Assembly: GCA_964648665.1 (NCBI GenBank)
Contig: CAZYOA010000010.1
Location: 1 to 62,962, forward strand
Origin: an uncultured Planctomycetales bacterium
GTDB taxonomy: Bacteria; Omnitrophota; Gorgyraeia; Zapsychrales; Aceulaceae
Direction of reading: 5' to 3'
DNA: 62,962 nt
Below are positions 2 to 53,904 of the stretch, piece by piece (position 1 is the first letter of the stretch; every line of letters starts with the position of its first letter). The notes beneath the pieces were generated by a model that was not told the DNA's origin, did not search any database, and saw only the letters and a list, made by a program, of their open reading frames with translations. A program made the translations under genes and the position numbers.

Positions 2-3000
2 TCAGCTGTTGAACCTACTAAACAAGAAGCTCCTGAAGAAACTGTTGCTGAAGAAATTAAAGAGTCAGATGTCAAACCTGCCAAGCAAGATGCTCCTGAA
101 GAAACTGCTGCTGGAGTTGCCCAAATTGACATCGCAGTTGTTCAAACGGCAGCTGATGATTTCAAGACTAGAGCTGATAAGTGGGAAGAAGGTGCTCATG
201 ATGGCGATGGTATAAGTGCAGATTTAGTAGAGCTTGCAAATATGCTGAAGGATGTGGTAAATACAGAAAACGGAAAGGGACAAAAGATAGCATCTTCTAT
301 TCTTGGTAGTTTTCTTGAAAGAATGAAGAAAGAGTTGTCGTTAACAAAAGAGACAATTCAGCCACAAGCTTTAGTTGTTCAAGATAAAGAAGAAATAGTT
401 CAATCTGGCAAGCCAAAAGAGAGTAACGGTGTTAAGAAGAAGAAAGCTGATCCTAAAAAAACTAATCTTAAAAAATCTGATCCTGAAGAAGTCATACCAG
501 CAAATATGCGCATTTCTTTTCTTGAGTCAGATAATAAAATCGTTGAGATGTTTGTCTTGTTTAAAAAACAGGCAATTAAGAATTATCAAATATATATAAC
601 GAGGACGCAGCAACATAATGAGTTAGAGAAAAGCGTGCAAGTTCAGATTCTAGCATTTAAAAAAGTTATTGAGAACGCAAAGAATGAAATGAAAAAAAGT
701 ATTGAGAAAATTGGGTCTGACAATCAAGCTTTCTCGAAAGATTTAGAGAGAATACAAGAGCTGATTGCCTTGCTAGATGATGGTCTTCAAGAACAAATAG
801 AGAGAAGCCAGCAGCTTAAAAAGCAGGCTCAAGAGTATAGACAAGAAGCTGTTGAAGCGTATCAGGCGTATTTTCTTCAGCTTAACGAGCTTTATGAAAA
901 AGTTCAAGAAGCTCAAGGAAAAGAAAAAGAGGGGCAAGCGCGTGTTGAGGATCTGTTGAGAAGAATTGCACAAGTAGAACAAAGAATTGAAAACCTTAAG
1001 AGTAAAGAAGAGAGCTTGGAAAGTGAAGTCTTTGATAGCTCTTTTCAAGTTGATGAAGATGCATCTTGGATTGCAGCATTCTTAGACTATCAGCAAATGG
1101 GTGACGCTTTATCAAAAGAACTTCAACAAAAAATTGATAGCGCAAAACAAAAAGTAGAAAAGAATAACCCTGAGCAAAAAGAAAAAGAGCGAAAAGAGCT
1201 AAGAAAAATGATTGATGCTCTTATTGAGAGCTTTAAAGGATATTTAGAAGCATTAAAAACATCTTGGCAGAATGTGATTGCACAGCAGGAAGTTATAGGA
1301 ACAGCTGAAGCCGATATCCTAATGACAGGAAGAAACAAAACAAAGGTAATTAAAGAAAAAGCAAAGCTAGAAAGACAACTTGTTACGGAAGAAAATCGTC
1401 TTTTGGCTCTTGTGTCACAGCGGGAATCGAACGAGATACAAATGAATAAATCTTCTGATGATGTATCTGCAAAGCTTGCCACCGTTGATAATATAAAGAA
1501 AAAAATAAAGCAGCTGGGAATCAAAATTTTGAGAGTACAAAAACTTTTGGTAGACGAAGAAGATCAAGAAAAAGTCATTCAGCAAGAAATAAATCAAAGA
1601 AGCCAAAATGTTAAGAATTTAGAAAAACAAATAGAGATTATAGAGAAGAAAATTAAAGATCTTCAGCAAAAAATTGATGCGTCGATCGGTAAAATTAAAT
1701 GCCAAGGAGTAAAAGCTGATAAATTCTTTGCTATAGAGGAAAGCGCAAGAGAGGAAGTAGAAGAAGCTAAGGAGGCGCTAGAGGAAGACTCGCTTAATGG
1801 TTCTTTGCCAGAATCTGATTTGCAGTTGGTTATTATTCAGAATCAAGACAAAAAAGAAGAGTTGCAAGATTTAGCGGATCAACTGGAGGCTAACTTAAGG
1901 CTTTTGATGAATGAGGTCAATCTTTCTAATTTATCAGAACGTATCGATAAGATCAAAAAAGCATTAAAAGATATGAGGATTAAAATAAAGGAATATATTG
2001 AAAGCGAAAAATCAAATCAACAAACAATGAATATGCTTGTAAAGTCAAAACTTACGGTTATTAGCGACATTATCGAGATATCTCCTCGGCATGCTCTTTT
2101 AAAAGATTTGATAGAAAAAAACAAGGTTGAGATTGAAAAACTTATTTCGGAAATCAAACAGAAAAGAAAATTAAAGAAAGAGCAAGAAGCAAGACGCGAA
2201 CAGCTGGAAAAGAAAATTCGAGAGCAAACAACTGCTATGCAACACGCAAAAAATCAAAAAGAAATTCATCAAAAGACGATTAAAAGAGAGCAAATTTTTC
2301 TTAAAATTGATCAAGAGCAGATGGTTAAGCTGGGTAATTTCTTTGATTCTTTAAAAAGTCAGCTTGATCAAATTCTTAAATCTGCTGAGAGTATTCAAGG
2401 AGAGGTTTTGCTGAGTCGTCGTGTATTAAAGGTTTTAAAGTCTGCAAAGGAGAGGCGTGTTAAGAATTTACCTAAAATAAGAGAAGAATATCTTGAGCTA
2501 AATGCGGATTATCAGGATCTTGAGATGAATGAGAAAAAACTATTTCGACAGATCGAACAGCTAAAAAAGAAAATTATTGGTATTGAAAAGCAAAAACAAA
2601 TTCTTGAAGAACGGGAAGCTCAATTTGATATAACGCTTAAATATAATTTAGAAAAGATAACTGAGGCAGAAAAGGCAGAGCGTCGTTCTTCTAAGGAAAT
2701 AGAAGCTCTTAATATAAATTTAGAAGAATCGGGAAGAAAGATAGAAGCTGGGTGGATATTATCAAAAGAATCTTCCGAGCAAACAGGATTGGCACAAGGG
2801 AGCCAAGATGCTTCATTGCAAATTCTTGAAAGTTTTTCAAGGATCTATGCTCAAATTAGAAAAAGATTGAATGCTCTTGAGACCGAATTTGGAAGGCATC
2901 AAATAGGAACAGGAAAGAAGAAAAAAGATGATCTTAATCTAGCATCTGCTTTGAAGGAAGTTTCTAAAAAATTAGCAGAGAATCAAGAAACTCTTTCTCA

Positions 3001-6000
3001 AGAAAATTTATTTTATGGTCAGGCATCTAAAGATTTACAAGATGCAGGGCAAAAAGCAAGAGATTGGGAAAAAGTTTTAAATGGTATTCAGGGGTATTCA
3101 GTACAAGGCCAGGAAGCTTTACGAGATATTCCAGAATTGCTTGAGAAGCGAAGAGCTTCTTCTTCGCAAAAGAATACCGCTGCTCAAAAGCAAGCTGATT
3201 TTCTTTTAAGAACTTTGCGTGATTGTTTTGAGAACCACTCTCTTTTTATCAACACCTGGAAAGCTGTTAAAGAAAAAAGGGATGAGTATCTAGGCCAAAA
3301 GGCAAAGTTAGAGGTTTTATTGAATGAGGCAAAAAGAGTCTATCGCGAAATAAAAGCAGACACACTTAGCAAAGATTTACCTTCAAAGATAAAAAAGATA
3401 CAGCAACTTATTAATTCTGTTGATTTCAAATTGTCTGAGAAATCAAAAGAAGTAGAGCAGTTGAGAAAGCTTGCTCAAGGATATAAAATGAAATCTCAGA
3501 CATTGTATATTCAGTATCGAAATAAAGCTAAAGAGTTTGAGAATAAATATCAGGCGGCTAAAACGACAGGAGATAAGGCTCAAGCGGAAATTGATGAAAA
3601 GCAGCAGAAAGAATCAACATGGCAAGAAAATCTTAAAACATTAAGAAGCAGGATAAAAGAAATTGAGAAATCGCTAAGATTTAATGCGAGCACTCAAGAA
3701 GCACAAGAAATTATTATTAAGAATGTTGATGAAATAATTGCACAGATTAAGGCCGACATTCAAGCTTTTGAAAAAGAAGAAAAAGATTTTAAGAAAATTC
3801 TAAAAGAAACTAATCTACAGCTTGAGAAAGCCCAAGCCGTTGTTAAAAATACAGCAGCAGAAATTCAGAAACAGGAAGATGTAACAAAGAATGCAGGCAT
3901 GAAGAAAAGAGGGGCAGTTGAGTCTATGATACAAAAAGATCATGCTATTGATTGGAATGCATCTGATAAAGAAGAAATGATGGGAGAAGAGAGCGTTTTA
4001 ATTTCAGAAAAAGAAAAAGCTGAGAAAAGTTTTAAACAAGCAAAGCAAGAATTGTTGTCTTTAGGTGAAAGCATTCCACTCGTTTTAAGTCAGATAAACA
4101 AGAGATTTCCTGATGGAGCAGTAATAATGCGTCAATTGTATAAATTTGTTAATCCTCGGGCAATGGCAGAAAGAATTTTTAGCATTCAAAAGAAATTACT
4201 TGAAGAATTAGAAAATCGACGAGTGCTTCATCAGCTTAAATTTGATAATTTTAAAGAAGAAAAAGAAAAGCTTAGCGAAAAAGTCACGCGCTGGCGCTAT
4301 TTTGTGCGCCTAACTAAACAGCGTTTAAAAAGGGCTTGGCAGAATAAAGAAAAGACTCAAGATCAGCAATCAGAAGTAAGGCGAACGCAACAAAGGGCCA
4401 CCGATCAAATCGAAACAATAAAATCCAGACAGATGTCTCTTGCCCGGGTTATTGGTTCACTTAAAAAGCAGAGAGATAATATTGCTACAATGAAAGGTCT
4501 TGTAGAGTCCGAATTAAGAATACTAACAGATGAAATAGCAGCAATCGTTGCGGAGATTAAGAATTATCAGAAAACTCTTAAAGAAGCGGACGATATTGTA
4601 AAGAAAAATAAGCCTGAGATTGATAAACTTCAGAAAGAAGAAGAGACTTTATTGATACAGATAGACGCGATTGAGAAAAGCATGGAAAGATTACACGAGG
4701 GAACAGCAAAAGCAAACGGAAAAGCGTTCTCTGGTAATAATTTCAAGCAAGAGATAGGCGATGAAATTAAAAATAAAAATGGGTTTGATAGTCAATCCGA
4801 AGATTTAAAGCAGAAGAAAGTTGAGCTAATGAGTGTTCAGCAGGCTTTGGAGAAACTGCAAAAAGATTTCTCTTATGCGGAAAACAGATCTTTCTCATTT
4901 AAGCTGAGACTGGCTTTAAAGCTAGCCCGCCAATTTACTTTGGAGCCTAAAATTGAAACTTTGCAGTTCGAACTAGAAGAATCTCGAAAACAGGGAGAAT
5001 ATATCCAGAAAAGCTTAAATAAGCAAATAGATTTGCTGGGACAATGCGATCAAGAACTTATTCAAGAGCAAAAGAATCTTAAAGAAGCCGAGAGAGAAGA
5101 GAGTAAGCTAGAAGATAGCATGACTGCTCAGAAGAACGCATTAAAAATATATCAAGTTCGATTAGAGAATTCTTTAGAGAACTTGGAAGAAGAAGAAAAG
5201 AAGAAACAAGATATTGGAGACTTCCTAGCTTATCATCGAGCGGAGTTAGACAAAATTACAAAGGAGAAGGCTGCGGCTACAAAAGTTTTTGATTCGGCAG
5301 AAAAACAAAAGAATGCGCTGGCAGAAAAACAGGGTTCTTATAAGCAATATGAAGAGTGGAAAAGAGAAATGGATGATCTTTATGCGCGCTATGCAAAACT
5401 GAAAGGCAAGGAAGCGGATGCTTCTCTTATGTTAGAACAAGGCAAGGCAGGCGAGGTTCTTTTATGGGAGGCTGAAATATATATATATCGAGCAATAGAA
5501 AAGAAACGACAAAAGTTGCAAGCTATTGAAGAAGAAGAAAATAAAGAGCTTGAGAGTTTATCTGGTTTGAGAGAGGAATTTGAAGAAAACGAAATGAAGC
5601 TGAAAGCTGTTCGTTCTAAATATAAGGAATGGCAGCAGAAAGCGGAAGGATTCTCTCAAGGGATAGAGGATGCTAAGGTGGCATTAGAAAAGAATGCAAG
5701 AGAGCGCCAGAAACTTCAAGAGTTTTATGACGAAGCAGCAAAGCAGAAAATCGAGGCTGAAAGAATTCTAAGAGAGAAGCAGGGTGAGGATGTACCACTA
5801 AGCAAAGAAAAAGAAGAGGCTAAAAAAGCGTCTGAGAAAATAGAAATAACAATTGAGAAGCTTTTTATTGGTATTGATAAAATAAAGCAAAGACAGCTAA
5901 ATGCGCAGAAAAGAACAGAAATGTATGAGGATAGTCTTGCAGAGGTTCAGAAGGAATATCTTCCTCGAGTATCTTCTTGGCGAGAAATTGAACAGTGGAT

Positions 6001-6050
6001 AGTCGAAAGTGCGAAAGGCGAGGACGATGCTGAACTTCAAGGCCTAAAAA
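2..6050 (+). other. N-terminal coiled-coil region of the giant protein (~2,000 aa)
   Basis: E/K/Q/L/A-rich sequence, almost no Pro, continuous heptad-like pattern. It ends at SSAVARSASSS and is followed by a hydrophobic helix (LWAIGLGVAGGIGVIGVIVFGWFLI, ~6150-6230). Confidence 0.85.
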
Positions 6051-9000
6051 AAATCTCTTCTGCGGTTGCTCGATCTGCAAGCTCAAGTGTTGTTTTAAGC
6101 CAGCTTGGGTCGGAATTCTCTGCAATATTGTGTCTCAATGTTTTTTCTTCGTCTCTTTGGGCAATAGGCCTAGGGGTTGCTGGAGGTATTGGCGTCATCG
6201 GTGTCATTGTTTTTGGGTGGTTTTTGATAAAGCGTCATATGGTGTTGCATCTAAATGTTCCATCTTCTTCTCCAGAGGTTGAGAATTATTTGTTGAAAGA
6301 ATTTGATGAGCTGGATAAATCATTATTAAGTAAAAGAAAAAGATTTTCTTATTTTCTAAACAAAAGACTGCTCGTGTCCATTATTCGTGCTTATAGCAAA
6401 AGAATAAGAAATGATTTCTCAGAGGATCAAGGTGATCTGGAAGAACGTTTTATTTCTAAGGATGATGAAATAAGTCCTCTTATTAATCGAATAGCTGAGG
6501 TATTGGGTGTTCAAAAGATTAAAGAGGAAGACATGAAGTTGTTCGAAAAATTCACTAAAAAACCAGAAATAAATCTTAATACTCTTCTAAAACCACTAGA
6601 TTGTCATACGGTGTCAATGCTTGGACGATTTGACTTAGCACTTTTAAGAGCGATTAATTTTGATTCTTCTGAAAATCGCTCAGAGGCTTTAATACAGTTT
6701 AGAAAGAATCAACGTTTAAGCATACGGCAAGCGGCTCAAAGATCTGTTATTTCAAAGAAGGAATACGAAGAGATAGAACGTTCAGGAGTTATTTCATCTA
6801 AGAAAGGAAAAGAGGTTTCAGGCGATGAACAGGTGGCAGAAGAATTATTCTTTGAGCCGGAACCGAAAAAAGTTTCAGAGGGTCAAGGTCAGCTTATTAG
6901 CTATTTGACTTTAAGCATAGCTAAAGCTGAAAAAGGAGTTACCAACGCTTTTAGAAGAAAGATTGCAGAGTGCATCGAGGCGTTAACTTCTTTTGCTAAA
7001 AAGAATAATTTGATTATTAATTTTGATATTAATAAAACTTTGAAAACGATTCTTCCGATTGCTGTTCATCAGGTAGCAAAGCGGATTTCTCCTAATCCAG
7101 AAAAAACTTTAAAGGTTGTTCTTAATCATTTGCCTGAAAATGGTGCTATTGCTTTTGAAGTGGATGGGCCTTATTTGACATCGACGGGATGTGTTATTTT
7201 TCAGCTCAAGGAAGCAAGAAGTCGCACTAAAAAAGATAAGTTAATGAGGTTAAGGGCAGCGGCACGGAATGAAATCGATCAGCGAGAGGAATATTTAAAA
7301 CTTGAGGTTCTTCTTGGTCTTTTCCCTGAGGCTAATCTTGCTGTTTTGAAAGCGGTATTGAATGAAATCGATCAGAGAGAGGAATCTCTAAAGGCTGATG
7401 TTCTTCTTGGTCTTTTCCCTGAGGCTGATCTTGCTGTTTTGAAAACGGCATTAACGAAAATTAAAAAGATTAAACAGAGAGCGAATGGCCAGAAAAGTGG
7501 AGTTGTTCATCGCAATGAAGTTGTGGTGGCTGACGTTTCTCATTTGACAGAAGCACAAGCGCAGAAGCTATATAAATTAATTGAAGATTTAAGGAATCGA
7601 AAGGGTTTTAGTTTCGCTTTCGAAGGTTCTTTTACGGTTGCATTTCAGAGCAACATTTTGGAAGTGGCAATTCTTAGAGATAAGAAATGGCAACAGATAG
7701 AAAGATACGAGTTTAAAAGTTCATCAGCGATTGTCTCGCCGGTTGCACCTGCTTCGAGTGCTCCTGTTTCCATGCCAATTCAACATAATTCCTTTGTTAT
7801 GCCGACTGTACCGCTTGCATCACCTTTGATATCTAGCGCGATATTCTTGCTTAGTCAGAATGGATCAGGTCATCAAGCAGGTAAAGCAAGAGGTGAGTCA
7901 TCAGGTCTTGGTATTCTTTCTGATTTATCTTTTATGGCTTGGATTTCTAAGAAGCAAAGCGCTCCAAATGTTTCTTCTTCATATATATTGACTTCACAGT
8001 CGCTATCAAGAAAATCAACTTCCTTAGACGGAACGATTTCGATAGCGACTTTTTTATTTAAATATCTTGCCGGTTTTCGCTCACTCTTTCTACCGTGGCT
8101 GGGAGAAGATTTCGATGCCGGCATTTCTTTATCAGTGGCGAGTTCAATACTTAATCTTTCTACAAGAGCTTCATCTGTAGCGGTTCTTCTAAGTATTGAG
8201 ATTTTGTCATACGGGAGCAAGAAGCTTACTTATTTTTCTCATTCCAACATACCGTTTCCTAGCGAACTAGCGAGAGGGGAAGTATATTTTATTCCTGAAG
8301 CTGAGGTTTTCTTGGCGAGCAAGATAGTTTGTAATTCAAAGATGACTCGTCATCATGGCCCTTTTCTTTTTGTGCACGGAAAAGGAAAATTTGGTCAGCT
8401 TTGCCTGGAAGGAACGGATGTTCCAGTTTCCGAATATCTATTTCTTCTTCAGAGGGAATTTCAGGTAAGCCAGATAGTCGTTCTTTGCTGTAACGAGGGA
8501 AATAATAATATAGATGTTCCTGAGGGGATGACAATTATATATCCTACGAGCGATGTTAGCGACTTAAGCAGGGCTCTTGATATGGATTCTTTGACAGGTA
8601 CTAATGATTTAGAAATGTTTTTTCAGGCGCATTTTTCTGAAATGTCTACGAGTGAGTTTCAAGGAATTCAGAATTTTTATCAAGCAGATTCATGGATATC
8701 AAAATCTGGTTCAAGTTCTTTAAGAAAGACTTTAGCGGCCTCTTTCTCACCTATCAATACTTTTGATCGCAACAAAAGATCTTTTTCAAATCACGCGATA
8801 AATCGAAGAAAATTTATTAAGATGAGTGCTGGTGGTGCAGGAGCACTTGGTTTCTTCGCAGCGTTTGGATTTATTCCTAAAGAAGGTAAAGCGCAAGCCG
8901 AGGTTGCTGATGGCGCAACAACTTTAAACAAATTACGAGAATGGAAAATCCTTTTTGTTACGGGTGACAAAGATGATTTTGGTGAAGCTAACAGTTTATT

Positions 9001-12000
9001 TGTTATGAGCGCAGATGGTTCAGATAAGAAAATTCTGCTAGAAGGCGATGATGTTTGGGTTGATTCAGCATCTTGGTCTCCTGATGGGCAGATGATTGCA
9101 TGCATCAATGGTGGAGATTTGATTATTTTTAATCGAGATGGAAACGTTTTGATTGAATCTGTTAAAGAATATGAACATCAGCAGTTATTTATAGAAAGTT
9201 TTTCTTGGAATCCTGACGGCAAATCGATATTTTATGCACAAGATGGCGTTGGAATCTTTGAGTTTACGATTGAAATAAGCAAAACGATTCAAGTCTTAAG
9301 GACAAGTAGGCAGGCTGTTGATCATTACCCTATTTTATCTTCTGATGGAATGGATTTAGTTTTTATTCATAATGAATTTGCTACAAATTTTTATATTAAT
9401 TGTATTAGGCCATATGGTTCTTATGAGAGCTTAAATGAAGATGAATATATGGAAAATCATTTTAATAAAAAAAATCAGAACCATTTTATAAATGAAAATA
9501 TAGATGTTCTGTTTCGGGGGAAGTCTTGGGGCTGGAATGTCGATCATTTTATTCAATGGGTTCCAAATAGCGATAAGATTATTTTTTCTGACAGAGGGGG
9601 AATTCAGAAAGTTTATGCTCTTGATTCTTGGACAAAAGAGTCGGAAGAGATTTTTAGTTCAGAGTCAATGCGCTATATGCGGCTTTCGCCTAACGGGAAG
9701 ACCTTGGCTTATATTGAAGATGCCCCGAAAGAAATTGTTGTTTGGGCTATCGAGGTTAATGGGAAAAATAAGCGCAAGATGAGTGCGTTTCCAACTAACG
9801 AATGGCTAAGCGGAATGAAAGTATTAAGCTGGTCTCCTGATAGCGAGTATCTCGGTGTCGCGGTAAACACAAATACATATATTTTAAATAAAGATGGTGA
9901 AATTGTTCATCTGATTAATCATAAAGTTGATTCTATAAAACATCTAGATTGGTCACCGAAGAAATCGTCTTCATCGCTTTTTCTTGCAATTCTAGATTTC
10001 GGAAATTCTTCTCAAGCTGATATCTTTGGTTATTCTATTATTGCTCTTCTTGTTGCTTGGGGTGTTTTTTATATTTACCCAATGCTTTTTGGATCGTCAA
10101 TTAATTATCAAGATCTTGATTGGAATGATTTTTCTATTAAAAAGAAGAAAAAGGGCATTAAAGCGTTTGAGAGATTTATTAAGAATGTTCAAGATCCAAA
10201 TAGTTCTGAAACTTTTGTTCTTGCTCGAGATGTTGAAACCGCTATGGAATGCATTAATAGTCGAGTTGGGCTTATCGATCAATATGGTATAAATTTTGCA
10301 GCTTTATATAAAGAGTTGCTTGAAGAGTTTAACGGCAGACAAAATTTTTATGAGTTTGAAGTTTTAGCATTCGCGAAAGAGCTTTTAGAAAGAAAAGAAA
10401 AAGAACTTATTTCCGAAAAGCTTAAAGTTAAAACGAACAAAAGATCTTCTTCGAATCTTTCTGTAAAATTCAATTACACAAAAAGTGAAGAGCTTTCTTC
10501 CCCAGCAGTATCTGCTTCAAAGGCTTCGTCTGCGGCTAAGCAAAATAAAAATAAGAACACTTTTCTCTATCATTGCTTTTTTGACATTTTAGGTATGCCA
10601 AGGTATTTCCCTGAGAATCAGGAGCCACATAATATTATAGATTATATGAATTATACCGTTCAGGCCTTGTGTACGACGAAGAAGTTTAAGGATAACGTTA
10701 CTAAAATTCTTGATTTATTAAAGAAAGCTTCAGGAGAATCATTGGATTATCTTGAAACTGTGGCCAAGGATATTTATGCACCTTTAGCTAATCGTGTTGG
10801 TTTTTTAGAAATCGCTGGAGAGCTTGTAGATGCTGTTTTTAAAGCTCGTTTTCCAGAGCAATGGGCGACGGCTGAAAATGAGATTCTTCGGGCTTTAGGA
10901 GGGATGACACGCGGCCAAGCAAATCGTTATCTTTTAGGAGTTAGCGCAAAAATTAAATCTAAGCTAGAGGACACAGGTATTGAAGTTGAAGCAATTTATT
11001 TGAGAGTTAAGGGGGCGAGTGCTGCTTTTGAAAAAGTCAAAAACAAGAGGGGCGACAAGACTTCGTATGCAAAGATTGGAACATTGCAAGATTTGCTTGG
11101 CCTTCATATTGTTTTAAAAAATAATGATGATTATTGGAAAGCTGTTGGGCTTTTAGCAGGCTGGGACAGTATTTTTGCCTCATATCAAGATCTAGGAGGA
11201 GAGCTAGATGAGGAACAAACGGAACAAAAAAGTCGTTTTAAAAAGGATAAATATGATGCACAACATTTTGGCATTAATATTCCTGTGCCTTCAAAGGTTA
11301 ACGGTGAGACAGCGTTTGTCATGATGGAGATAAAACTTTTTGATCCTGATAAATATATGTATTTTCGATACAGCCAAGAAGTTGCTTCGTGGATTTATGA
11401 GTTAAAAAGACGCTATCCGAATCAAGAATTTTCCTTAGGTGGATTAACCACCATGTCAAGTGATCCAGAGACAACCTTTGAGGATCTTTATTCTTATCTT
11501 CAGAATTGGACTTATTTCTTCTTTGTTCAGGACAATGATTTTGACGAGTGCTGCACTCTAAAACCTGTAGGACTTAAAGCAGGCGTTATTATGGCGGATG
11601 TTTTGAGTTTACCTGGAGTCGATAAGTTCTTGGCTCGTACGCAGACTAACGCTAAATTGCTGGAAGGGATGAACAGCCGTGATCATGCATTGGTTTATGG
11701 CTTTAGCTTTGGAACAACGAGTCAAAGAAAGAAGGAGCCAGCAGTCAAGAGATCTGGTAAGACTGTCATCGAAAAACTTAAGGAGGGTGATTTTATTCTG
11801 GTTGATTCAACAAAAAGGGCAAAGCTTACTGTTCAAGAAAAAGAGAAAATAATGAGCGAAGCAGGACGGTTGATGACTCTTCTGAGGCTTCAGCTTAAGC
11901 CTGGAGATTTTTATAATATGTCCTTGGAGGATGAAAACGCGAGAAAGATATCGTCCCGTGGCACAAAAAAGTTAATCTTGGCAGACTCGACCGGAGGAGT

Positions 12001-30000: not shown

Positions 30001-33000
30001 GAAAAATATCATTAATAAAGATATACAGGAAAATACTTTTGGTGTTATTGCAGGGTTTAAAAATGCGAAGAATCAGTTTGTAGCTTTAATGTATTATCAC
30101 AAAAAAACATATTCTTTCTTAGACGAAAAGTTTTATGTAGGCTCTCCGGAATGTGTACCTAAAGAAATATTTAATATTGTTTTTGCTGAAACTTTAAAAT
30201 CATTTGATCGGTCAAAAGAATTTATTGAATTATTAATTCAAGAAGCTATAAATCTTAGCCTGCAAGACATATCTTTAGATTTAAAGTTTCAAGGTGCTAT
30301 AACTTTTGATTATGTAACTTGTGGGACAGAAGCAATCTCTGAAAAAAGTATGAAAGAGTTTTTAAAAGGTTTAGGATTTCAAGCAGTATTGCTGGAGAGA
30401 CCTGTAGGGCTTTTTGAAACAGCAAAAAGTGAAGCTGGTTTTATGTTTTTGGCTAAAGACGCAAATGAGTCTCAAAATCAGAATAAAGATCTTAGTCAGC
30501 GTAAGAGCAGCTTATCATTACAGCTAAAGAAAGTAGCTTCTTCTAGCCTTGATCGACTTATTGTAAAACTCAAAGTTATAAATGAAAAAGAATTTTCAAG
30601 ACGACCAGAAATTATTAGCCATCATGGACTTCCTCATTCTTTAGCTGTTTGGAATGCGTGTAAAGCAGTTGCCGGTGAATTTGGTGCAGATCTTGAGGTT
30701 TTAGCTGTCGGAGCATTCTTACACGATATTGGCATTGCTTATACCGATGACATGCGTCATGGTCGTGTAAGTGTTAGAAGGGCAAGGCCTCTCTTAGAAA
30801 GCATCGGATTCGTACGAGAAAAAATTGATCTAGCTATAAGAATTATTGATGAACATGATGATTATAAGGTCTATAGAGAAAGTATAGAAAGCCAGATTCT
30901 TTTTTATGCAGACACAAGGGCTGCTTTTGGGGCTCGAGGAGCGCAAAGATATATCGACATTTATAAGGAGCGGGGTATTCAAGAATCAGACATTCCAAGT
31001 CTTGCTTTAAAAAACATGAAGAAAAGATATGATTTGGTTCTAAATTTGGATTTTAAAGCAAAGCTCAAAGTTCCTTATAGTCGCGGTCAGAAGTTTTTGC
31101 AAGACATCGTCGATGGTAACCATAGATCTAAAGTTTCTAAACTTAAGACGCCAAGATTTTATATCTTGGATCATGCTTTTTGGATTTCACCGTATCTTTT
31201 GAAGCAAACACAAAGGCGCCACCGAGGTAAGAATGAAAGATATGAAGTTACGCTAATTGATCAAACGTCTGGTCTTTGGATTAAGTTTCTTTATAAAAAG
31301 AGTGAAAATTGTTTTGTTATTAAAATTCCTGAATTTTGTTGGCATAAAAAAGTTTTTCCACTTTTGCTAGAAAGAATTTACCTTAAAGATATTTTTAAGA
31401 AAAGCGTAAAACTTTTAAATTACAGAATTGTATTTCAGTTTGTATTGCGCATGATGATAGCTCGACATCCTTTTGTTTCGGTCGACAAGGCTGTTTTTGA
31501 AGAAGTTGAAGCTTTTGGTCAAAGAAAAGAGATAAATAAAACGCTCACACAGAAGTATGTTGATTTTGTAGGATTTCATATGATTGGTATTTTAGAGGGA
31601 ATTCAGGGTCATGTTAATCGTTATCGAGATAGCGACAAACAAACTGCGTTATTTTTTATTCTTTCAGATAAAAATGATTCTTCTATTTTTATCGTTGTCT
31701 GTCGTATTGGAGAAAAGATTTATATTCTCAATTCTGATATTTCTTTTGATGAGCTTTTTCCTAAAAAGAACGGCAAGCTTTTAACTAAGCGCATTGATCT
31801 TAAGCAGAACAAAAGCTTTGCTAAATTTTTATCGAAGATGAACGTTAGGTATAGAGAAGGAAAAGAACGTAAATTTAAAGAAAATGAAAAAGTTCTCTTT
31901 TATTTTAATAAAACAGCGGTCAAGGCAAGAGCGAATCAGCCTGTGGACGCGGTTAAGATAAAAGATCCATTAATTAAAAAAGGTATTTTGGGTGGTCAGG
32001 TTGATATCTTAAGCAGAAAGAACGGAGAGCTTTTGTGTCGAGTTATCCACGTCTTAGAAGATAAAGAACAAGGTGTTATTTTTACGATTGAAGGTCTTGA
32101 GCTTGAAAATGGCCAACTTCTTCGTGTTGCTGTGCAAAGTACAGTTATTCATCTTAATCGAGTTTTTACGCTTTTTAATCTTATCCGAAATGTCTTAAAG
32201 CCTTCTGCGCAAAAACAATTGGATGTTTTATCTGAAACGTTTTCTTTTGCATGTATTGCAAAATCAAATTACCAAGTTCCTTATCAAATAGATTCTGAAT
32301 TAGGACAAATTACATTCTTAAAGACGACTGGTGAATCAAAAAAGAAAAATTCATCTAATATTATTCTGCTGGATTTATCAATAAATAAAAAGATTCGTAA
32401 GAGTTCTTCAAATATTGACTTAGGAAAAGACTCTGGGAAAGAAGCTGGATCTCTGTGGCAGCAATTTAGGTTGGCTGATCATATTATTGAGAGTGAATCG
32501 AAAGAGCTTAGATGGCTTAAGAAATCATATAAGATGATTAATTATATTCGAAGAATGTTAGCAAAGATTGCTTTGAATCAAGAGAATGTAGCTCTTCGAG
32601 AAGATGAAATTGATCAGATTAGAGATGTTTTAAAGTCCTTAATTGATGAGGGAGAACAAGAAGCTGGCATGAAGCGTCCCATCAAAAAGGTGAAGATACA
32701 AATTAAAGAACGATTAGAGTTTGCTTTGGAATATGTCGAAACGCAAAAGTCGGCAGCTTTTGCAATTTTTTTAAGTGATACCTTAAGGCTCATGGTTCAA
32801 AGAGGAAAAGCAATTAGAAATATTATAAATTCTATATATAATTGTCAAATTTTAGGCTTAGAGAAGGAGTCTAGTTCTAAAAGCTTTGAATTCTTAAGAT
32901 ACATAATTAATATCGAGCAAGAAATTAACGTTGGTGGACTTAATGCTGCTTATAAATTAATTCAGAAGCTTAAAAACGCAGAACATTTAAGCTGTTGTTT

Positions 33001-36000: not shown

Positions 36001-39000
36001 ATCGATACAGGCTCATGGTACACAAGTTCCTCGTAAGGATTTTCTTTATAGGACAGCTTATGACCGAGGCGTTGAATATATATCCAAAGCCTCAGCCATG
36101 ATCGCAGAGCTTTTAGGGCTTAATTTTACGTCTGGAAAACACGCAAATAATTTTGTTGTAACTAAAATAACAAAGAGAGGCAAGCTTCTCGCGCCGGATT
36201 CATTCAAGAGATATCAAATTGTTTTTAACGGAGAAAAAGAAAAAGACGGGTTTGAAATTATTGATATGTATACAGGGCAGCCAGTCTTATTTATTTCTCC
36301 CCATCCAGATGACCCTGAAATCTCTGCAGGATTCTTGCTCATTTTTCTTCTAATTCAGGGTGCTTCGATTCACAATATTATTTATTCATCTGGAAAGAAT
36401 GGTGTTGTTGATGATGATCCTCTGCTAAAAGAGCTTCGCGAGAAGTTTAGTTTTGAGCCGGAAATGGCCAAGGCTATAATAAGAACGTTTGAGGCTGGGC
36501 AATCAGCTATGTTTTTACGTTCGGCTTTATTGGCTTTGGGAAAACTTAAAGGTGACATTGAGGTCTTGAGCTTAACGGCAGATCAGATATTTTCTAATGG
36601 CAAAGAAAAAGATACTCGTCTTTATAAAAGGTTTTCGGCAGTCTTACAGAATCATCTTAGGTTTAGAGCAAGCTCGAAAGAAGGAATCAACAAGCCAGAT
36701 CTACCATTTGTTGTTGCGCTTACTCATCCGGTTGACAGGCATCCAACGCATATTGATGCCTACAAGAGGAGCATTAAGGTTCTTCATCAGTTAGCCGTAA
36801 AGTATAATATTGAAATTCAGATTATCTATTATATGCCGCCATGGCAAGGGGATTATGACACGTATTTTCAATCTTCATCTAAACAAAAAATAGAGGACGT
36901 TGCTCGTTTAAGCAAAGAGGATCAGATTACAGCATTGATGTCTCAGGGAATGGCTTATTTTACTGCAGAACTCACTATGAAGGCGTTTGGAGCTAAGGTT
37001 CCTTTCCTTAAGGATATGGGCGGAGAACGTGTTGAGCGGTTTAGAAGAGGTGTGGTTAGAGCGTCTTCCTCAGCAATCGATTGTAAGTTTTTAATACATT
37101 TTTCCAAGGTCAGAAAGTCGCTTTCAATTTATTCTTGGGAAGGCGGCTCTTTGGAGCAAAAAGAAAGAATTGAACGCTTGCTTTCTGGTTTAAGCCAAGT
37201 TATTCCTAAAAAACATTGTGAGTATTTAAAATATATCCACCTACGCTCTGGTTTTGTTTGGAATAAATTTACGGGTCTCTTTACTCGAGCGGGGGGAGGT
37301 ATGGTGCGTGATAAGCATGGGATTATTTTTTATAATATAGATTTGCTTTCAGATTATGAGCTAAAAGAAAAAATATTCCACGAGATTGGTCATTTGGTTC
37401 AGCGTCATCTAGATAAAAAGACGAGAAGAAGTTGGCCAGTTAGTATGATTACTCACCTTGACGTCTATGCTCCCAGGGCCCTTGTTACATCTCTCATAGC
37501 TTTATTAATAATGGTTAACATGTTCGGCATGCACGTTTCTTATCATGTTCCAATTGCCCTGTTTATTTTCTATTATTATTATTGGTTTTTTGCGCGTCGA
37601 ACCATGCGGAAAATCTTATCATTACAAGGAAGTTATGTTTCCGATTACGCCACTCATAATTGTAGCGAAGATTTTGCAGAAAGTTACAGGTATTATTTTC
37701 TTTATCGCAATGAATTTTTCAGTAAGGCTAAAAAGAATGACATATTGAATGTTAAATTCAAGATACTGCAAGAAGAAGAGGAAAATGCCATTTCCTCGCC
37801 GGTAGTTTCTTTGGGAACAACAATAGCTATTGTTGGCCTTGGTAGATGGGGTCAAATTTTGGTAAAAGTGTTAGATGATTTTCTAGAATATAATATTATT
37901 GGAATTGCTCGCAGTAATTATGAAGAGCTAAAGAAAAGAGGGCCTCTTGGTGTAAATGTCAAAATACTTAGTCATAAAGATTATCAAGTGCAAGTATTAA
38001 ATAATCCTGATATAAAAATAGTCGTTATTGCTACTCAGCCTTCCAGTCATTATCAATTAACCAAAGATGCTCTTTTAGCAGGGAAGAATGTTCTTGTTGA
38101 AAAACCATTTGTACAGAGCTTGGAAGAAGCGCAAGAGTTAATAGGGCTTGCCAATAGGAATAATCAAGTTTTGGCTGTTGGGTATGAGCTTATGCATGAT
38201 TATTATATTAATTTGCTCAAAGATATTATAGAAAACAAAGCTATTGGGCGTGTTATCGGAGCCGAGATTAATATTATGAATTTGTCTTTAGAAGAAAAAT
38301 TGAACATAAGCGTTAATGTTGTAGAAGAATTGGGTGTGCATGCTTTTAGCATTGTTCAAGTTCTTTTTGGGGTGAGAGAAACGACGGAACTTTGTGCTCT
38401 TGTAAAAGAAAATAAAGCTCAGGTTGGATTTATTCATGATGGCATAAAGGTAATGATAAATGTTTCAACAGAAGCTCAATATAAAAAAAGAACAATTATT
38501 GTCAAGGGAGACAACGGGACAATTGAATTAGATTATGCTATTGGCAGTTTTATAGCGAAAGATAATTATGGAAATATGATTAGTAAAGATGATCTAGGGC
38601 TTTCAGAGCAGTTGTTGGCTAAAAAAAGAAATTCACCTTCAACGTTGGAGGCCGAATTTAAATTGGTTTTAAAAGCAATCGAGACAGGTAGTGAACTTAT
38701 TAATAGTGCTGAGAATGTTTTGTGGATAACAGCTCTAACTAGCCAGATTAATCATCTTGTCTTGGCAGAGAATGGAGTGTTGCCTGCAAGTTTTTATGAT
38801 ATAGATATTAGCAAGAATATGCCTCAAGGGAAAGCAGAGGCTTTTATTAGAGGAGAATATACAGAGTATCCATTTAAGGTTGAATTTTATGTTGGAACAC
38901 ATTGCCCCGGAAATTGTATATTTTGCCCAAGAAATGTTGATGGGGAGATGTGTAATTATGATACGGAGGCAGAAGCTGGCTTGGTTAAGCTTTCACCCGA

Positions 39001-42000
39001 ACAATACACTAGATTGGTTTATGATTGTGCTGACAACGGAACAAAAGAAATTGAAATAACCGGAGGGCTCGAGCCGCTTACTGATGTTTCTGCTGTGATT
39101 GCAATAATTAAGGCTGCAATAAAAAAAGATTTAATAGTTTATATTTATACTTCAGGAATTCCAAGGCAATTTCAGGTAGGTATGCCTTGGTTACTTAAGA
39201 CAAGTAAGGTGAGGATAAGCTTGCATGCTGCAACGTCAGGGACATATCATAAGGTTGTTCGGCCGAGCACTAAGGAGGAACAATCTAAGAGAATATTTCT
39301 TTCGGTTTTAGAAAATCTGCGTTTACTCGTTGAAAAAAGAAATAGTGATCCAATATCCAAGACTTGCCTGGGGATTAATATTGTTTTAACTGAGTTTAAT
39401 TATCATGAAATTGTTTTGATAGCTGATTTGGCTTATGATTTGGGATTAGATTTCTTGGATATTCGTTTAGATTTTCAAGATAGTGAATATTTTACACAAG
39501 AGCAAGAAGCAGAGCTTGTAGGTCTTATGGGAAAGCTTCGTAGAAATACGAGTGAAAAGAAATATGGAGATTTAAGGATCAGTTTTCCTGTTTGCTTTCT
39601 TCCTTTTGATGGTTATTTTATCAAATGGCAAGATTATCCAGAAGACGTAGATACATATTCTGAGTTTGGAACATACCCCTTTGAAATTATAATTGATCCT
39701 TTTGGAGGTGTATTTTTTACTTCTACATCTGCAATGCCAGGTAATCGTCATCTTGACATTCTTGAAAACAAAGAATTAGGTGTCGTAACAGGTAATGCTG
39801 ATGAAGAAATTAAGATGATATTAAAAAAAAATATAGAAAAAAGAAGAAAATTTAAATTTACTGCAAAAGAATTGAATGTTTTTACTAGAAAAATGTTGCT
39901 TGATTTAAAAGCGATAGAAAAATCAACAGGTAGCAGTGTTTTGATTGCTCAAGAAGTTCTTAATAATTTTTTTAATAGAGGAATCGTTTTGGAAATAGTC
40001 GATTATGAGCATAGTGCGAATGCTCCGCCGCAAGGCGTTATCTCCTCGCCTGTGAAATTTATACTTGTTGCAAAGCTGGATTCTTATTGTTTTGACTATG
40101 ATTTTGAAGATACAATGTATGTCTTAGAAGCTCTTCCATCAGATAAAAATTTGAAGAGTTTTCTTGATAATCAAGACATGGAATTTGCCTTTGTGATGAT
40201 GATCACAAATCAAGGTCCAAAGTTGTTTATGATTAAGGGGCGAACAAGTAGGCAGGCTGTGCATATTCAAAAATTAATTAGGAGCGTGTTGAGTAGTTAT
40301 AAAGGAAAGATATTATTTGCATTACATAATCATCCTATTGGTGCAGGTTACTTTCCGAGTAGAGGTGATTTTATGGGAATGATTGTGGAGTATGATGATC
40401 TAGTTGAATTGGTTGAGAAATTTTACCTGTACAGTCCTTTTCATAGAGCGTACATAGAATATAGCAATAAGAAAGAAGTAGAAGATGAAGTTCTTCGATT
40501 TAAAGTAGAGTTTTCAGATGGGAATTCTGATGAGTTTCATTTTGAAGAAACTTATAGCTATTTCTTTAATTATCCTTTTGATCCAAGAAAGGAGATTAAG
40601 CTAGATAATTCCGCTGTTAACGAGGAGTATATTAGGTTTGTTGAGAAATTAGAAGAAAGACGAGTAATGTTTTTAGGATGGGTATTAGATGGGGCAAAAA
40701 AAATAATCATAGAATCGTGTATTGGAAATGTGGCTATTTGGCATAAAGATCTTAACCTTCTTAATGATTTCGCGCTCAATGTCAATAATGATTCAAGATC
40801 ATATTTGCGAAAAGTAAGCTTGGTGATTGATAGATTTGATTTAAGTTTTTTAACTTATTTTTCGAATAAATCTTTTCTTTCGTCGGTAAAGAAGACAAAT
40901 CTGTTTTGTTTTCGAGGCGGACAAGAGCCTCCAACTGTCCAGGCTGTGTCTTCAAGTATTGCTTTAACTTATATGATAGGCTCTGGCTGCTTGACGTTTG
41001 CGGCAGAGTTTTTAGGAAATTATTTTGCTACTAAGAAATTTGATCTTAAGCATGCTTTGCCATTTTTTGTTTTTGGCGCGTTGGCAGGATATGAGTTTAT
41101 TTCATTAACGGATTTTGTTTATGTTCAGATACCTTTGCTTAGCTTTGGAGTGAATGATATTTTTAGGGCTGTATCGCTTATGGTGATAGGAGGATTCATT
41201 GGAGTTCAGTATTTATTATTTAATCATTTATTGCACAAGATCTTTCTTAGAGACAAAGACCTGACCGACGAGGCAGAGCTTGATTTTAATCTTAAGAATC
41301 AAATGAGAAAGATCGTTAAAGTGTCCCCTGTTTTAGGTCTCATCATTTTCTTAAAATATTTTCTTATTCAGCGTTTTTTGCCAGAATTGTTACAGCCAGC
41401 TGTGCTTATGTTTTGGGGCTCTTTAACGCTTGTTGTAGCTAGTTGGGCTGCTAACTCTGAGAAAGTCGTAGTTTACAAGGAGTTGCTAGATAAGGTTAAG
41501 GGGCGGATAGGAATGAGTTCTAAAAAGCATAATTTAAAAAAGTCTTCTAGCTCGCTCCTGGTTTCGAGCAATATGCGAAATCCTTCATCTAGTCTTCGTC
41601 GTCATCGGATGGTTTGGTTAATAAGGTCTATTTCTGATCACCTTCCAGAAGTATTTCAGAAAATTGAGAATAAATTTAATGAAAATTCTGATTATGTGAA
41701 TATTTTAAAAAGTCTTAATGATCTTCGAGATATTAGAATTTCTGTTATTCACACGCATATTCATATGGACACACATAGATTTGATCGGCTTTGGGATAAA
41801 ATGATTGATGTTGTTTTAGAATCCATTGATGAAGTAAGAAGTCTTTATGTTGAGGCGGAAACACTTTTTATCGATGAAAGCGACTCTGTTGATAAGAATT
41901 TCAAGGGGGAAGATTGGAGTGATATTGTATGGGTTTTGTATTCGATGAGCATTAACGAAAAGAAAAAGCTAGAACGTTTTCTTGTTTTGTTTCCCGCAGC

Positions 42001-47096: not shown

Positions 47097-47341
47097 TTAT
47101 CTTAAAGTTCTAGCAAGACCTAGAATAATCCCAGGAAGTAAAATAGCGAATGTGATACTGCTGGGATTAAACAAAAGCTTTCCGTGTTTATTCTTTTTTT
47201 TTATTATCTTTTCGATAATTATTAATGCAATGCTGGTGACAATAAAAGCAGGATAAAAAATAATTATTACGATGTAAAATAAGATTAGTCTTATAAATAT
47301 TTCGTAACTATTTAAGTAATGTACCTACTAAAACTCGACAT
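47097..47341 (-). pseudogene. Possible small two-TM membrane protein with a single frameshift near the 5' end
   Basis: GGGAG RBS then ATG at 47341 gives MSSFSRYIT*. The adjacent frame is open as ...YLNSYEIFIRLILFYIVIIIFYPAFIVTSIALIIIEKIIKKKNKHGKLLFNPSSITFAILLPGIILGLARTLR*, with TAA directly abutting the U32 stop. The 245-nt span is one base short of in-frame. Confidence 0.3.
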
Positions 47342-47361
47342 ATATAAAAATCTCCCGCCCC

Positions 47362-47389
47362 TTGTTTTTTCGCCATTATATGCTATATT
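47362..47389 (+). promoter_or_regulatory. Putative sigma70 promoter for the subtilase gene
   Basis: TTGTTT-N16-TATATT with an extended -10 TG, about 120 nt upstream of the ATG. Confidence 0.4.
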
Positions 47390-47509
47390 TTCTGTAAATC
47401 TAAACAATAAATAGGAGATCTCTTTAGGTGCTGAGTCTGTCTCGGCGTATCTGAAAAAGATGTCTATTCCATTTCATTATATTAACAGTCTACTCACGCG
47501 AGGATTAAC

Positions 47510-52666: not shown

Positions 52667-52786
52667 TGAATCGTAAGTAATCAAGGGCAGCAGGTCCCAA
52701 CCTAAGATGGTGCTTGGAGAATATATGAAGTAAAGTGGAAGAATGGCAAGAGGTATGGGAATGGAAATATCAAAGCAAGCTTTATC

Positions 52787-52820
52787 AAGGTTGTAGATTC
52801 GAATCCTGTCCCTGCAGCCA
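52787..52820 (+). other. Decayed tRNA 3' fragment (tRNA-fMet-like), possible att-site relic
   Basis: AAGGTTGTAGATTCGAATCCTGTCCCTGCAGCCA: T-arm with a TTCGAAT loop, acceptor 3' strand and CCA. No 5' half upstream. Confidence 0.6.
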
Positions 52821-52984
52821 ATGTAATAGCGAGAGAGTCAATGATTCAGGTTATTGGCTCTTTTTGTTTATGGTGATAAAATAATAGATGCGAATGCGAT
52901 GTCGCCGGTATTAAATAAAAACTTTCCGCATCTATTCTTCTTTTCTATTATCTTTCCGATAATTATTTAAGCAACCCCTGTTTC

Positions 52985-53410
52985 TTATAAACAACTTTCT
53001 TCATATTTCTTCATTAATATTTTATATTCTTGTCGTAATTTTTCGTATTCAACTTTCGAAGCTTCATAACGCTTTCTTTCTGATTCATACCATGCTTTAT
53101 TAGCTTTATTTTCCTTTAACTGTTTATTATACTGTTTCTCATATTCTTCATATCGCCTATTATATGTTTCTAGCTGTTTATTGTATTGTTCCTTGTACTC
53201 TTTAGATTGCTTATTATATGTTTTAAGTCGTTCTTTATATTTAGAATCTTGCTCTTCTAAAATTTTGAGAATTTTGTCAATCTTTTGGTCTTGTTTTTCT
53301 ATTTTTTTGATTAACAATGAATTATCTGATGAAGCAGTGCTAGCAAAAGCTAGCGAGGGAATAAGTAAGCCGGCTACTGCTGCGAAAAGTATGATTTTAT
53401 TTTTAAACAT
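52985..53410 (-). CDS. Small secreted coiled-coil protein (141 aa, start reassigned)
   Basis: AAGGAGG RBS precedes the ATG at 53410 (MFKNKIILFAAVAGLLIPSLAFA is a signal peptide). The mature part has YKEQYNKQL/YEKQYNKQL repeats. Confidence 0.75.
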   Translation of the reverse strand: MFKNKIILFAAVAGLLIPSLAFASTASSDNSLLIKKIEKQDQKIDKILKILEEQDSKYKERLKTYNKQSKEYKEQYNKQLETYNRRYEEYEKQYNKQLKENKANKAWYESERKRYEASKVEYEKLRQEYKILMKKYEESCL

Positions 53411-53413
53411 TTC

Positions 53414-53901: not shown

Positions 53902-53904
53902 CGT

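Follow-up and report, generated by a model that had tools for sequence, protein, structure and literature searches.

Giant open reading frames (ORFs) are characteristic of the bacterial phylum Omnitrophota (PMC10066038; bioRxiv 10.1101/2023.11.21.568195; bioRxiv 10.64898/2026.06.07.730766). The catalogue of Nielsen & Lui lists 916 proteins of at least 10 kAA (thousands of amino acids, aa), or 5,761 when metagenome-assembled genomes (MAGs) from NCBI are included; 94% carry transmembrane (TM) helices or signal peptides, with a mean of 22 TM helices, 80% of the sequence clusters are singletons, and the largest giants are flanked by type II secretion system (T2SS)/pilus and glycoside hydrolase family 2 (GH2) genes (bioRxiv 10.64898/2026.06.07.730766). 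West-Roberts et al. define two types, Archaeovorin and Dockerin (bioRxiv 10.1101/2023.11.21.568195). The Archaeovorin type sequence is a 39,678-aa protein of Velamenicoccus archaeovorus (bioRxiv 10.1101/2023.11.21.568195; PMC10066038), and the type is described by glycosyltransferase, methyltransferase, glycoside hydrolase, NUDIX and peptidase domains, divergent SecA_DEAD and SecA preprotein-binding domains, a C39 or S8 peptidase near the N-terminus together with a signal peptide, and T2SS/pilus or carbohydrate-import neighbours (bioRxiv 10.1101/2023.11.21.568195). The literature ties these giants to attachment and predation and proposes that they are proteolytically processed. Here we examine a giant gene that fills bases 2 to 44062 of a 62,962-nucleotide (nt) stretch of Omnitrophota DNA (contig CAZYOA010000010.1 of assembly GCA_964648665.1), the whole of which is referred to below as the window.

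We consider it probable, if far from settled, that the protein is a membrane-tethered enzyme scaffold that faces mostly the cytoplasm, exposes a few exported loops and was built by module accretion. The visible polypeptide begins with a coiled-coil-like region of ~2,000 aa and continues with ~30 non-repetitive modules, set apart by tri-serine junctions and by ~8-10 long hydrophobic segments, which would tether it in the cytoplasmic membrane. Its cofactor-dependent modules would lie on the cytoplasmic face as a co-localised scaffold for remodelling sugars, nucleotides and lipid head groups, and a few loops would lie outside, the clearest candidate being a beta-propeller between an internal twin-arginine translocation (Tat)-type signal-anchor and a hydrophobic segment. 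The gene would grow by the addition and shuffling of modules, including the absorption of a small downstream ORF.

A single open frame that outruns every assembly

Frame 2 of the forward strand runs without a stop from base 2 to the TAG at 44060-44062, and the two remaining forward frames hold 2,100 and 1,382 stops over the whole window. At the window's GC content of 36% a random codon is a stop with p = 0.079, and the chance of so long an open stretch, computed from base composition, is ~1e-527. Codon-position composition (GC1 0.41-0.55 > GC2 ~0.3 > GC3 ~0.27, with purines at position 1 in ~0.6-0.7) is even over the entire ORF and the same as in the adjoining genes, and promoter-like (sigma-70-like) and intrinsic-terminator-like sites within the ORF show no excess over shuffled sequences. 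Because codon-position statistics are uniform and these sites stay at the shuffle level, we conclude that the ORF is a single genuine protein-coding gene read in one frame throughout.

The gene next downstream, which encodes a 574-aa membrane protein, was located in four contigs (two from ENA assemblies and one each from a JGI metagenome and a Logan assembly), and the last 3,306 residues of the giant ORF are 99.97-100% identical in all four. The giant is called as 14,788 aa in ENA contig k141_137004 and as 14,799 aa in JGI contig Ga0307991_1000058, and by arithmetic on the reported coordinates each call begins at base 2 of its own contig. Since these calls run on upstream to the contig edges, the ATG at 242 is internal. 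The JGI contig keeps the ORF open for at least 113 codons upstream of the window and the protein comprises at least 14,799 residues; its true start lies beyond every available assembly. An earlier note on this DNA, written from the sequence before these comparisons, had read the frame as open over 14,686 codons from base 2 to 44062, taken the ATG at 242 as probably internal to a gene that leaves the left edge, and described the codons upstream of it as an acidic Ala/Glu/Pro-rich linker. All three readings stand, the first ~45 residues being acidic and rich in A/E/P/T; the leftward extension that it proposed has yielded 113 further codons and has stopped short of the start.

At the 5' side of the giant three assemblies break within ~340 nt of one another, all in the acidic, repeat-like stretch (the window, the ENA contig at +306 nt and the JGI contig at +339 nt), and we infer a tandem repeat at this point. 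In Candidatus Aceula lacicola, contig L085 ends ~130 nt upstream of the start of the protein P0005 (see below), and coordinate arithmetic puts the end of the GTDB contig close to this position. Repeats that assembly failed to resolve probably underlie both breaks (the left edge of the giant and L085 1..130). A metagenome scan with aa 1-400 recovered no relative, and a word-indexed search with aa 1-600 gave zero matches and also missed the identical ENA and JGI proteins.

That every contig breaks at the 5' end is one of several observations that would fit an assembly chimera, or a row of separate genes with recently lost stops, expressed from internal starts or not at all. The C-terminal tail is a separate ORF in a relative, module order varies among relatives, and the internal Tat signal resembles the fossil N-terminus of a once independent exported protein. 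We nevertheless judge it quite improbable that this is not one gene: four independent assemblies agree, all 44 kb show uniform coding statistics and intact catalytic motifs, no Met stands ahead of the Tat motif, internal promoter- and terminator-like sites occur at chance level, and a sequence of 36% GC would gain stops quickly without selection on a single frame.

Enzymatic modules and their tri-serine junctions

To describe domain content we searched Pfam, NCBIfam and PDB sequences with overlapping tiles over all 14,686 residues. These searches support ~10 domain types, or ~13 when a novel duplicated all-alpha module (module A), a GNAT-like block and the C-terminal tail are added (Table 1). 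The library-recognised domains cover ~14% of residues and about two thirds of the protein is unannotated. The earlier count of at least 20 unrelated domain types therefore exceeds what is found, and dark regions could hide more. The catalytic signatures CxxxCxxC, HPDD, HDIG, HDxxED and HExxH, read directly from the sequence, are intact. The GNAT-like block is without a library match and takes its label from its motif.

The cofactors implied by this content are ATP/GTP (ATP-grasp, RelA/SpoT-like), NAD(P) (GFO/IDH/MocA) and S-adenosylmethionine (SAM) with an iron-sulfur (Fe-S) cluster (radical SAM). Because these are needed, most modules would work on the cytoplasmic side of the membrane; the glycerophosphodiester phosphodiesterase (GDPD) and PIG-L modules could act on either side. 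PIG-L, GFO and radical SAM follow one another in a row at 36287..39517 (aa 12096-13172), and together they look like a fused pathway for amino-sugar or nucleotide-sugar modification. The motif FHEIGHLVQRH is the only HExxH in the protein and lies ~80 aa upstream of the Peptidase_Mx match, with a 39-aa hydrophobic segment (aa 12493-12531) between them; this region is a possible membrane-proximal Zn-metallopeptidase that would be relevant to self-processing. A VipD-like_C match of 21.3 bits, below the cutoff, was treated as probably spurious.

The same Pfam and NCBIfam tiles returned no adhesin, lectin, dockerin, Ig-like, cadherin, RTX, TSP3, NHL or other repeat domains, and no glycosyltransferase, methyltransferase, glycoside hydrolase or NUDIX at E<=0.01. 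No tile matched a SecA family; such domains are reported as highly divergent, and the 5' end of the giant is absent from the search. By its size and its long coiled-coil-like N-terminal region the protein recalls a classic giant repeat adhesin or S-layer-like fibre of the RTX/Bap/LapA type. Its content is enzymatic, however, with no tandem domain repeats, a single duplicated module and none of the Ig-like, cadherin, RTX or dockerin domains; the lack of repeats largely refutes such a fibre, which we rate as extremely improbable.

The modules are punctuated by short serine runs. The giant contains 35 SSS/SSSS runs against 6.1 +/- 2.4 in shuffles; past aa 2000 there are 29 runs of three, 5 of four and none longer, at a median spacing of 335 aa. 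Run enrichment is specific to Ser (z 12.2; Lys comes next at 2.6), and SS pairs in the giant show no enrichment. A DNA-level repeat was ruled out, as both serine codon families (TCN and AGY) are in use, and on the same ground selection on the runs acts at the protein level. The positions immediately ahead of them are enriched in basic residues, and aliphatic residues occupy positions +1/+2 in 57-66% of cases against 38.5%, giving the motif [K/R]-x-SSS-[LIVA][LIV].

Position ties the runs to module borders. Only 1 of the 34 runs past aa 2000 falls inside a recognised domain, where 8.0 are expected (P = 0.0013). Runs stand 5 aa past the propeller, 4 aa ahead of the first strand of GDPD and 4 aa ahead of the second copy of module A (A2), as well as between the GNAT-like block and the first copy (A1) and between the A1 block and HDIG. 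In a three-way alignment SSS marks the N-terminal edge of module A in both giant copies and in the relative P0001, whose upstream sequences are unrelated, and it recurs just past the module A block (KKVASSSLDR and KKALSSSVLE in the giant and P0001). The excess is common to relatives (7 against 0.4 expected in P0001; 4 against 0.7 in P0005), and among 26 long ORFs in the fetched loci only these two stand out. A distant high-GC giant fragment shows no excess (1 against 1.0 expected), and a phylum-wide bias towards serine runs was ruled out by 21 against 19.0 expected in 99 kaa of ordinary Omnitrophota ORFs.

The runs might be no more than a linker signature passed on together with the modules, or they might be sites of proteolysis or of modification. 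We advance tentatively, as a doubtful idea, that SSS is a functional inter-module signal in this giant lineage, most interestingly a processing (cleavage) or modification site. The motif goes unmentioned in West-Roberts et al. and in Nielsen & Lui, and missing cleavage-point information has blocked the dissection of giants into units (West-Roberts et al., bioRxiv 10.1101/2023.11.21.568195). Were the idea true, SSS would supply those missing cleavage points and the question of one polypeptide or many would become directly testable; taken together with the Tat-type signal inside the protein, it would imply a modular grammar by which pieces of a megadalton protein are sorted to one side of the membrane or the other.

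Table 1. Positions of the features described in the text (nt, nucleotides of the window; aa, residues of the giant counted from the window edge)
Feature	aa	nt	Strand	Basis or remark
Giant coding sequence, 5' end cut by window/contig edge		2..44062	+	14,686 codons + TAG stop
Acidic A/E/P/T-rich linker, repeated KQ[ED]APEET[VA]A unit	1-45	2..136	+	Composition/sequence reading
Putative coiled-coil stalk, ~1,800 aa, K/E/Q/L-rich, Pro/Gly-poor	~200-2000	599..6001	+	Matches only SMC/Rad50 coiled-coil arms
Hydrophobic uncharged segment, 38 aa	2039-2076	6116..6229	+	Strongest TM candidate
Internal Tat-type signal, NRRKFIK-MSAGGAGALGFFAAFGFI-PKEGKAQA	2933-2965	8798..8896	+	TIGR01409
WD40/PD40 (TolB-like) beta-propeller	~3020-3318	9059..9955	+	Library searches
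Hydrophobic uncharged segment, 30 aa	3341-3370	10022..10111	+	Directly past propeller
RelA/SpoT-like nucleotidyltransferase (synthetase-like) region	3589-3760	10766..11281	+	Below curated cutoffs
Hydrophobic segment	4254-4275	12761..12826	+	TM candidate, one Lys
GDPD	4432-4600	13295..13801	+	Library and PDB-sequence searches
Hydrophobic segment	5224-5243	15671..15730	+	TM candidate, basic cluster after it
RSH-type HD (alarmone-hydrolase-like)	5622-5740	16865..17221	+	HDVLED motif
Hydrophobic segment	5937-5956	17810..17869	+	TM candidate, Kyte-Doolittle 2.41
Circularly permuted ATP-grasp, glutathionylspermidine-synthase-like	7792-8142	23375..24427	+	E 5e-27; closest structure 3n6x
GNAT-like block, 141 aa	9409-9549	28226..28648	+	65% identical to part of P0005
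Module A copy 1 + extension	9561-10152	28682..30457	+	47% identical to P0001
HD/HDIG phosphohydrolase	10210-10310	30629..30931	+	Library matches and motif
PIG-L-type de-N-acetylase	12096-12254	36287..36763	+	HPDD motif
HExxH + weak Peptidase_Mx	12460-12470 (FHEIGHLVQRH); 12542-12607 (Peptidase_Mx)	37355..37822 (motif 37379..37411)	+	
GFO/IDH/MocA NAD(P)-dependent sugar dehydrogenase	12607-12850	37820..38551	+	UDP-GlcNAc-3-dehydrogenase-like
Radical SAM, DesII/MoaA-like	12941-13172	38822..39517	+	Intact CPGNCIFC
Hydrophobic segment cluster	13723-13819	41168..41458	+	
Module A copy 2	13866-14267	41597..42802	+	31% identical to copy 1
Basic, Cys-rich C-terminal tail	14579-14686	43736..44059	+	Homologous to free-standing 112-aa ORF P0002
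SSS runs (nt = 3*aa-1)	1053, 2027, 2049, 2088, 2573, 2658, 2904, 3322, 3482, 4233, 4436, 5197, 5677, 5997, 6184, 6228, 6956, 6964, 7376, 7727, 8205, 8222, 9547, 10180, 10801, 10957, 11348, 11562, 11802, 12291, 12355, 13650, 13848, 13862, 14449			
Polytopic membrane protein, 574 aa, family not recognised		44140..45864	+	Adjoins 3' end of giant
U32 peptidase-family protein		right flank		Borders apparent S8 insertion
Secreted S8 subtilase, 1,718 aa, FG-GAP/PKD domains		within ~47100..55700		3.4 kb downstream of giant
YkuD-LysM L,D-transpeptidase; AccA; RlmN; GT2 glycosyltransferase; ComM/YifB; DUF212		right flank		
tRNA-Leu(CAA) + tRNA-Ala(GGC)		62782..62960	-	Right end of window

Candidate membrane segments and the probable sidedness of the modules

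The credible TM candidates are aa 2039-2076, 3341-3370, 4254-4275, 5224-5243, 5937-5956, 12493-12531 and 13723-13819. When stretches of at least 20 aa without charge and with a mean hydropathy of at least 1.6 were counted, 9 were observed against 1.6 +/- 1.4 in shuffles. Membrane association of the giant is plausible because long uncharged hydrophobic segments are enriched in this way.

The internal Tat-type signal scores 19.2 bits against TIGR01409 (curated cutoff 16.7) and has a near-canonical layout, with an RR motif, a moderately hydrophobic h-region and a c-region that holds an AxA (AQA). A pattern of this kind, defined post hoc, occurred in 1 of 2,000 shuffles. As no Met precedes it, the signal is not a present-day gene start; it may be a relic of an exported protein that became fused, or it may still work as an internal signal-anchor. 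Together with the hydrophobic segment at aa 3341-3370 downstream, it brackets the beta-propeller, which alone among the recognised modules has a positive export signature and which we infer to be an extracytoplasmic loop. Handing of a folded domain to Tat by an RR-preceded helix in a polytopic protein is known, only for the last helix (PMC5449189, PMC3471235). A single-sequence AlphaFold model of the unit formed by the Tat signal, the propeller and the TM segment had a mean predicted local distance difference test score (pLDDT) of 37, too poor to use.

Several points weigh against a membrane-tethered, mostly cytoplasmic scaffold. Two of the nine enriched hydrophobic stretches are Rossmann core strands within PIG-L and GFO, and a Kyte-Doolittle TM count (8 against 6.9 +/- 3.5 in shuffles) was dropped as evidence. 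The Tat-type signal, at aa 2933 of at least 14,799 and with further hydrophobic segments after it, is neither N-terminal nor the final TM helix; published Tat-dependent internal helices come last among the helices of their protein (PMC5449189), and the signal of the giant still has more than 11,000 residues after it. Alternation of sides over the listed segments fails to put all cofactor-dependent modules on one side, so that either some helices were missed or the scaffold model is wrong. Four of the matches fall below their curated cutoffs (RelA_SpoT 17.9 bits against 27, PIG-L 26.3 against 28.2, Radical_SAM 28.5 against 29.5 and Peptidase_Mx 19.9 against 27). The missing N-terminus may carry a signal peptide, a C39 peptidase or other targeting domains.

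The internal export signal and the possible peptidase are also what an effector polyprotein would call for, that is, a protein exported or displayed at the site of contact with a host or prey and possibly cut into enzymes that act on or in the target. Its SSS junctions would be cut by its own HExxH domain or by the neighbouring S8 subtilase, and ATP, NAD and SAM would come from the target. Such a protein would agree with the published link of giants to attachment and predation, including the predation model of West-Roberts et al., and with the processing proposed for them; the SSS junctions show strong enrichment, separate domains and recur in relatives; the protein contains an HExxH peptidase-like region, and a secreted 1,718-aa S8 subtilase is encoded 3.4 kb downstream; GDPD and PIG-L could attack envelope lipids or glycans; and an export signal of Tat type is predicted. 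Against these stand the lack of adhesin, lectin, dockerin, glycoside-hydrolase and SecA_DEAD domains in the searched tiles and the absence of T2SS and pilus genes from the 19 kb of right flank. Export would probably leave an Fe-S radical SAM enzyme or an ATP-grasp unable to function, the S8 gene is absent from the syntenic locus in Ca. Aceula lacicola, and no cleavage is known for any Omnitrophota giant. We regard an effector polyprotein as rather unlikely, though a more serious contender than either a repeat adhesin or a set of separate genes, and retain the tethered scaffold as the preferred reading. The earlier note had proposed a surface-anchored effector or toolkit protein, not a housekeeping enzyme. 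Its multi-enzyme toolkit is borne out, and its surface-anchored effector sits poorly with the cytoplasmic cofactors and the absence of adhesin-type domains.

Relatives, flanking genes and described giants (REPETITIVENESS)

Tiled self-comparison of the giant revealed a single internal duplication, aa 9561-9965 against 13866-14267 at 31% identity, and the protein is not repetitive. A four-sequence alignment yielded a model of this module A that is confidently all-alpha across ~400 residues (pLDDT mostly 85-94), and a Foldseek search of it against the PDB gave no significant match (best E 0.76). Small local structure matches of MIT-like and SpeG-like type were set aside as generic or as lying in low-confidence regions. 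The sole sizeable tandem DNA repeat in the gene has a 93-nt unit in 2.2 copies with 86% match (7260..7459, aa ~2420-2486).

On the sequence comparisons made, the giant is close to being an orphan. No match came from a word-indexed search with aa 4601-6600 or from a metagenome scan with the module A alignment, and an exhaustive HMMER pass of the last 1,200 residues against 1.84 billion cluster representatives returned four proteins, of which P0001, P0005 and P0002 are informative. P0001, a 2,017-aa ORF from another MAG, takes up the whole of a 6-kb contig and is truncated on either side. It shares 47% identity with aa 9561-10152 of the giant and 24% with aa 6486-6951; these two blocks are ~900 aa apart in P0001 and ~2,600 aa apart in the giant, a difference of ~1.7 kaa. 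P0005, a 1,150-aa protein with its own start in Ca. Aceula lacicola, lies directly upstream of a homologue of the 574-aa gene and thus in syntenic position, and it has only the 141-aa GNAT-like block in common with the giant, at 65% identity.

P0002 (L087 42..380) is a free-standing 112-aa ORF with 46% aa identity to the last 106 residues of the giant, and the two DNA sequences align at ~75% across the tail, the stop codon and the spacer. Its Met is preceded by a stop at a distance of 8 codons, the next gene downstream is a homologue of the 574-aa gene, and L087 holds only 41 nt upstream of the ORF. The 3' end of the giant has apparently either absorbed or shed a small gene. Because the blocks of P0001 are spaced differently, P0005 occupies the syntenic site and P0002 is a separate ORF, the flank is conserved and the architecture of the giant turns over at the genus level, with modules gained, lost and re-ordered. 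The near absence of full-length relatives would follow if the gene evolves by adding and shuffling modules.

Five flanking proteins (AccA, DUF212, ComM, U32 and YkuD) are each closest to the Ca. Aceula lacicola MAG, at 78-87% aa identity; their gene order is kept there, and the next-best matches are all Omnitrophota MAGs. By these markers the host is an Aceula-related Omnitrophota bacterium, in line with the phylum named in the earlier note, which had also proposed such marker-gene placement and had called giant genes typical of the phylum, as published catalogues bear out (PMC10066038; both bioRxiv papers cited above). The genus Aceula was described from Ace Lake, Antarctica (PMC8542988). Genes of an ordinary bacterial chromosome make up the right flank (U32, S8, ComM/YifB, DUF212, YkuD-LysM, AccA, RlmN, GT2 and tRNAs), whose 19 kb contain no T2SS, pilus or carbohydrate-import genes and no prepilin motifs.

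The 574-aa gene is the sole gene that always adjoins the 3' end of the giant or of its counterpart. It encodes a polytopic membrane part and a C-terminal soluble domain, and had no Pfam match even at E<=1. Ca. Aceula lacicola carries two paralogues (L085 3683..5359 and 5409..7100), and a further homologue lies at L087 474..674. The L085 orthologue has a weak precomputed Glucos_trans_II match. There are hints that the protein is perhaps a membrane glycosyltransferase. Between U32 and ComM, at ~47100..55700, sit the S8 subtilase and five small minus-strand ORFs with membrane segments or signal peptides; U32 and ComM adjoin directly in Ca. Aceula lacicola (L005, L085), and the S8 gene has a GC content of 0.42-0.43 against ~0.35. 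This block looks like a lineage-specific insertion.

With thousands of Omnitrophota proteins of at least 10,000 aa catalogued, one more is unsurprising in itself, and a gene of this kind is expected for the phylum. The new leads are SSS at module junctions, the internal Tat-type signal and the C-terminal tail that is separate in a relative; they bear on whether such proteins stay whole at megadalton size or are divided into pieces, on their insertion into membranes and on how they grow. The tri-serine runs at module borders are lineage-specific candidate junction or processing sites that could help to test cutting into pieces, the internal signal predicts export of one specific module, and the free-standing tail gives direct insight into how the 3' end grows or shrinks. 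The cofactor-dependent enzyme content speaks against a general assumption that every such giant is an extracellular adhesin or serves to degrade walls.

Outside the phylum, MARTX-type toxins are built as one very long polypeptide with several unrelated enzymatic modules, which can be released by an internal protease. The giant, compared through domain scans alone, resembles them as a long polypeptide of unrelated enzymatic modules that an internal protease could free. Its modules differ in being metabolic enzymes and not known cytotoxic effectors, and neither the glycine-rich repeats nor the cysteine protease domain of MARTX was detected in the Pfam and NCBIfam tiles. The dual Sec/Tat Rieske proteins of Actinobacteria share with it an RR-preceded hydrophobic helix in a larger membrane protein, immediately upstream of a globular domain that would cross the membrane already folded; in these proteins no helix comes after the Tat-dependent one, and what is exported is a C-terminal, cofactor-binding domain (PMC5449189, PMC3471235), whereas the predicted signal of the giant precedes an internal propeller loop, with a hydrophobic segment and more than 11,000 further residues beyond it.

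Within Omnitrophota, the domains of the Dockerin or tandem-repeat type are absent from the giant, which has one duplicated pair only. It has in common with Archaeovorin its giant size, poor conservation, richness in enzymes, phylum and candidate hydrophobic helices, and its internal peptidase-like content raises the same question of processing. It differs in lacking glycosyltransferase, methyltransferase, glycoside-hydrolase, NUDIX and SecA_DEAD matches, having only a weak Peptidase_Mx match and an HExxH motif, in the lack of secretion genes in its 19-kb right flank and in being about one third as long.

The closest described group is the class 1 multi-enzyme giants of Nielsen & Lui. Like these, the protein comes from an Omnitrophota host, exceeds 10,000 aa in a single ORF of more than 20 kb, contains many enzyme families with none dominating (~10 families in one copy each, plus the single duplicated module of an unrecognised family), includes HD, radical SAM, oxidoreductase and WD40 content, has sparse candidate hydrophobic helices and is nearly a singleton. 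Gorgyraeia genomes dominate the catalogue, whereas the lineage here is Aceula-related; ~10 hydrophobic segments compare with a mean of 22 TM helices; secretion, pilus or GH2 genes are missing from the 19-kb right flank; and neither tri-serine punctuation nor an internal Tat-type signal is described for the class. Because it combines ~10 distinct families without repetition and only one internal duplication, the giant, as far as its predicted domains can place it, fits this documented multi-enzyme class of Omnitrophota giants.

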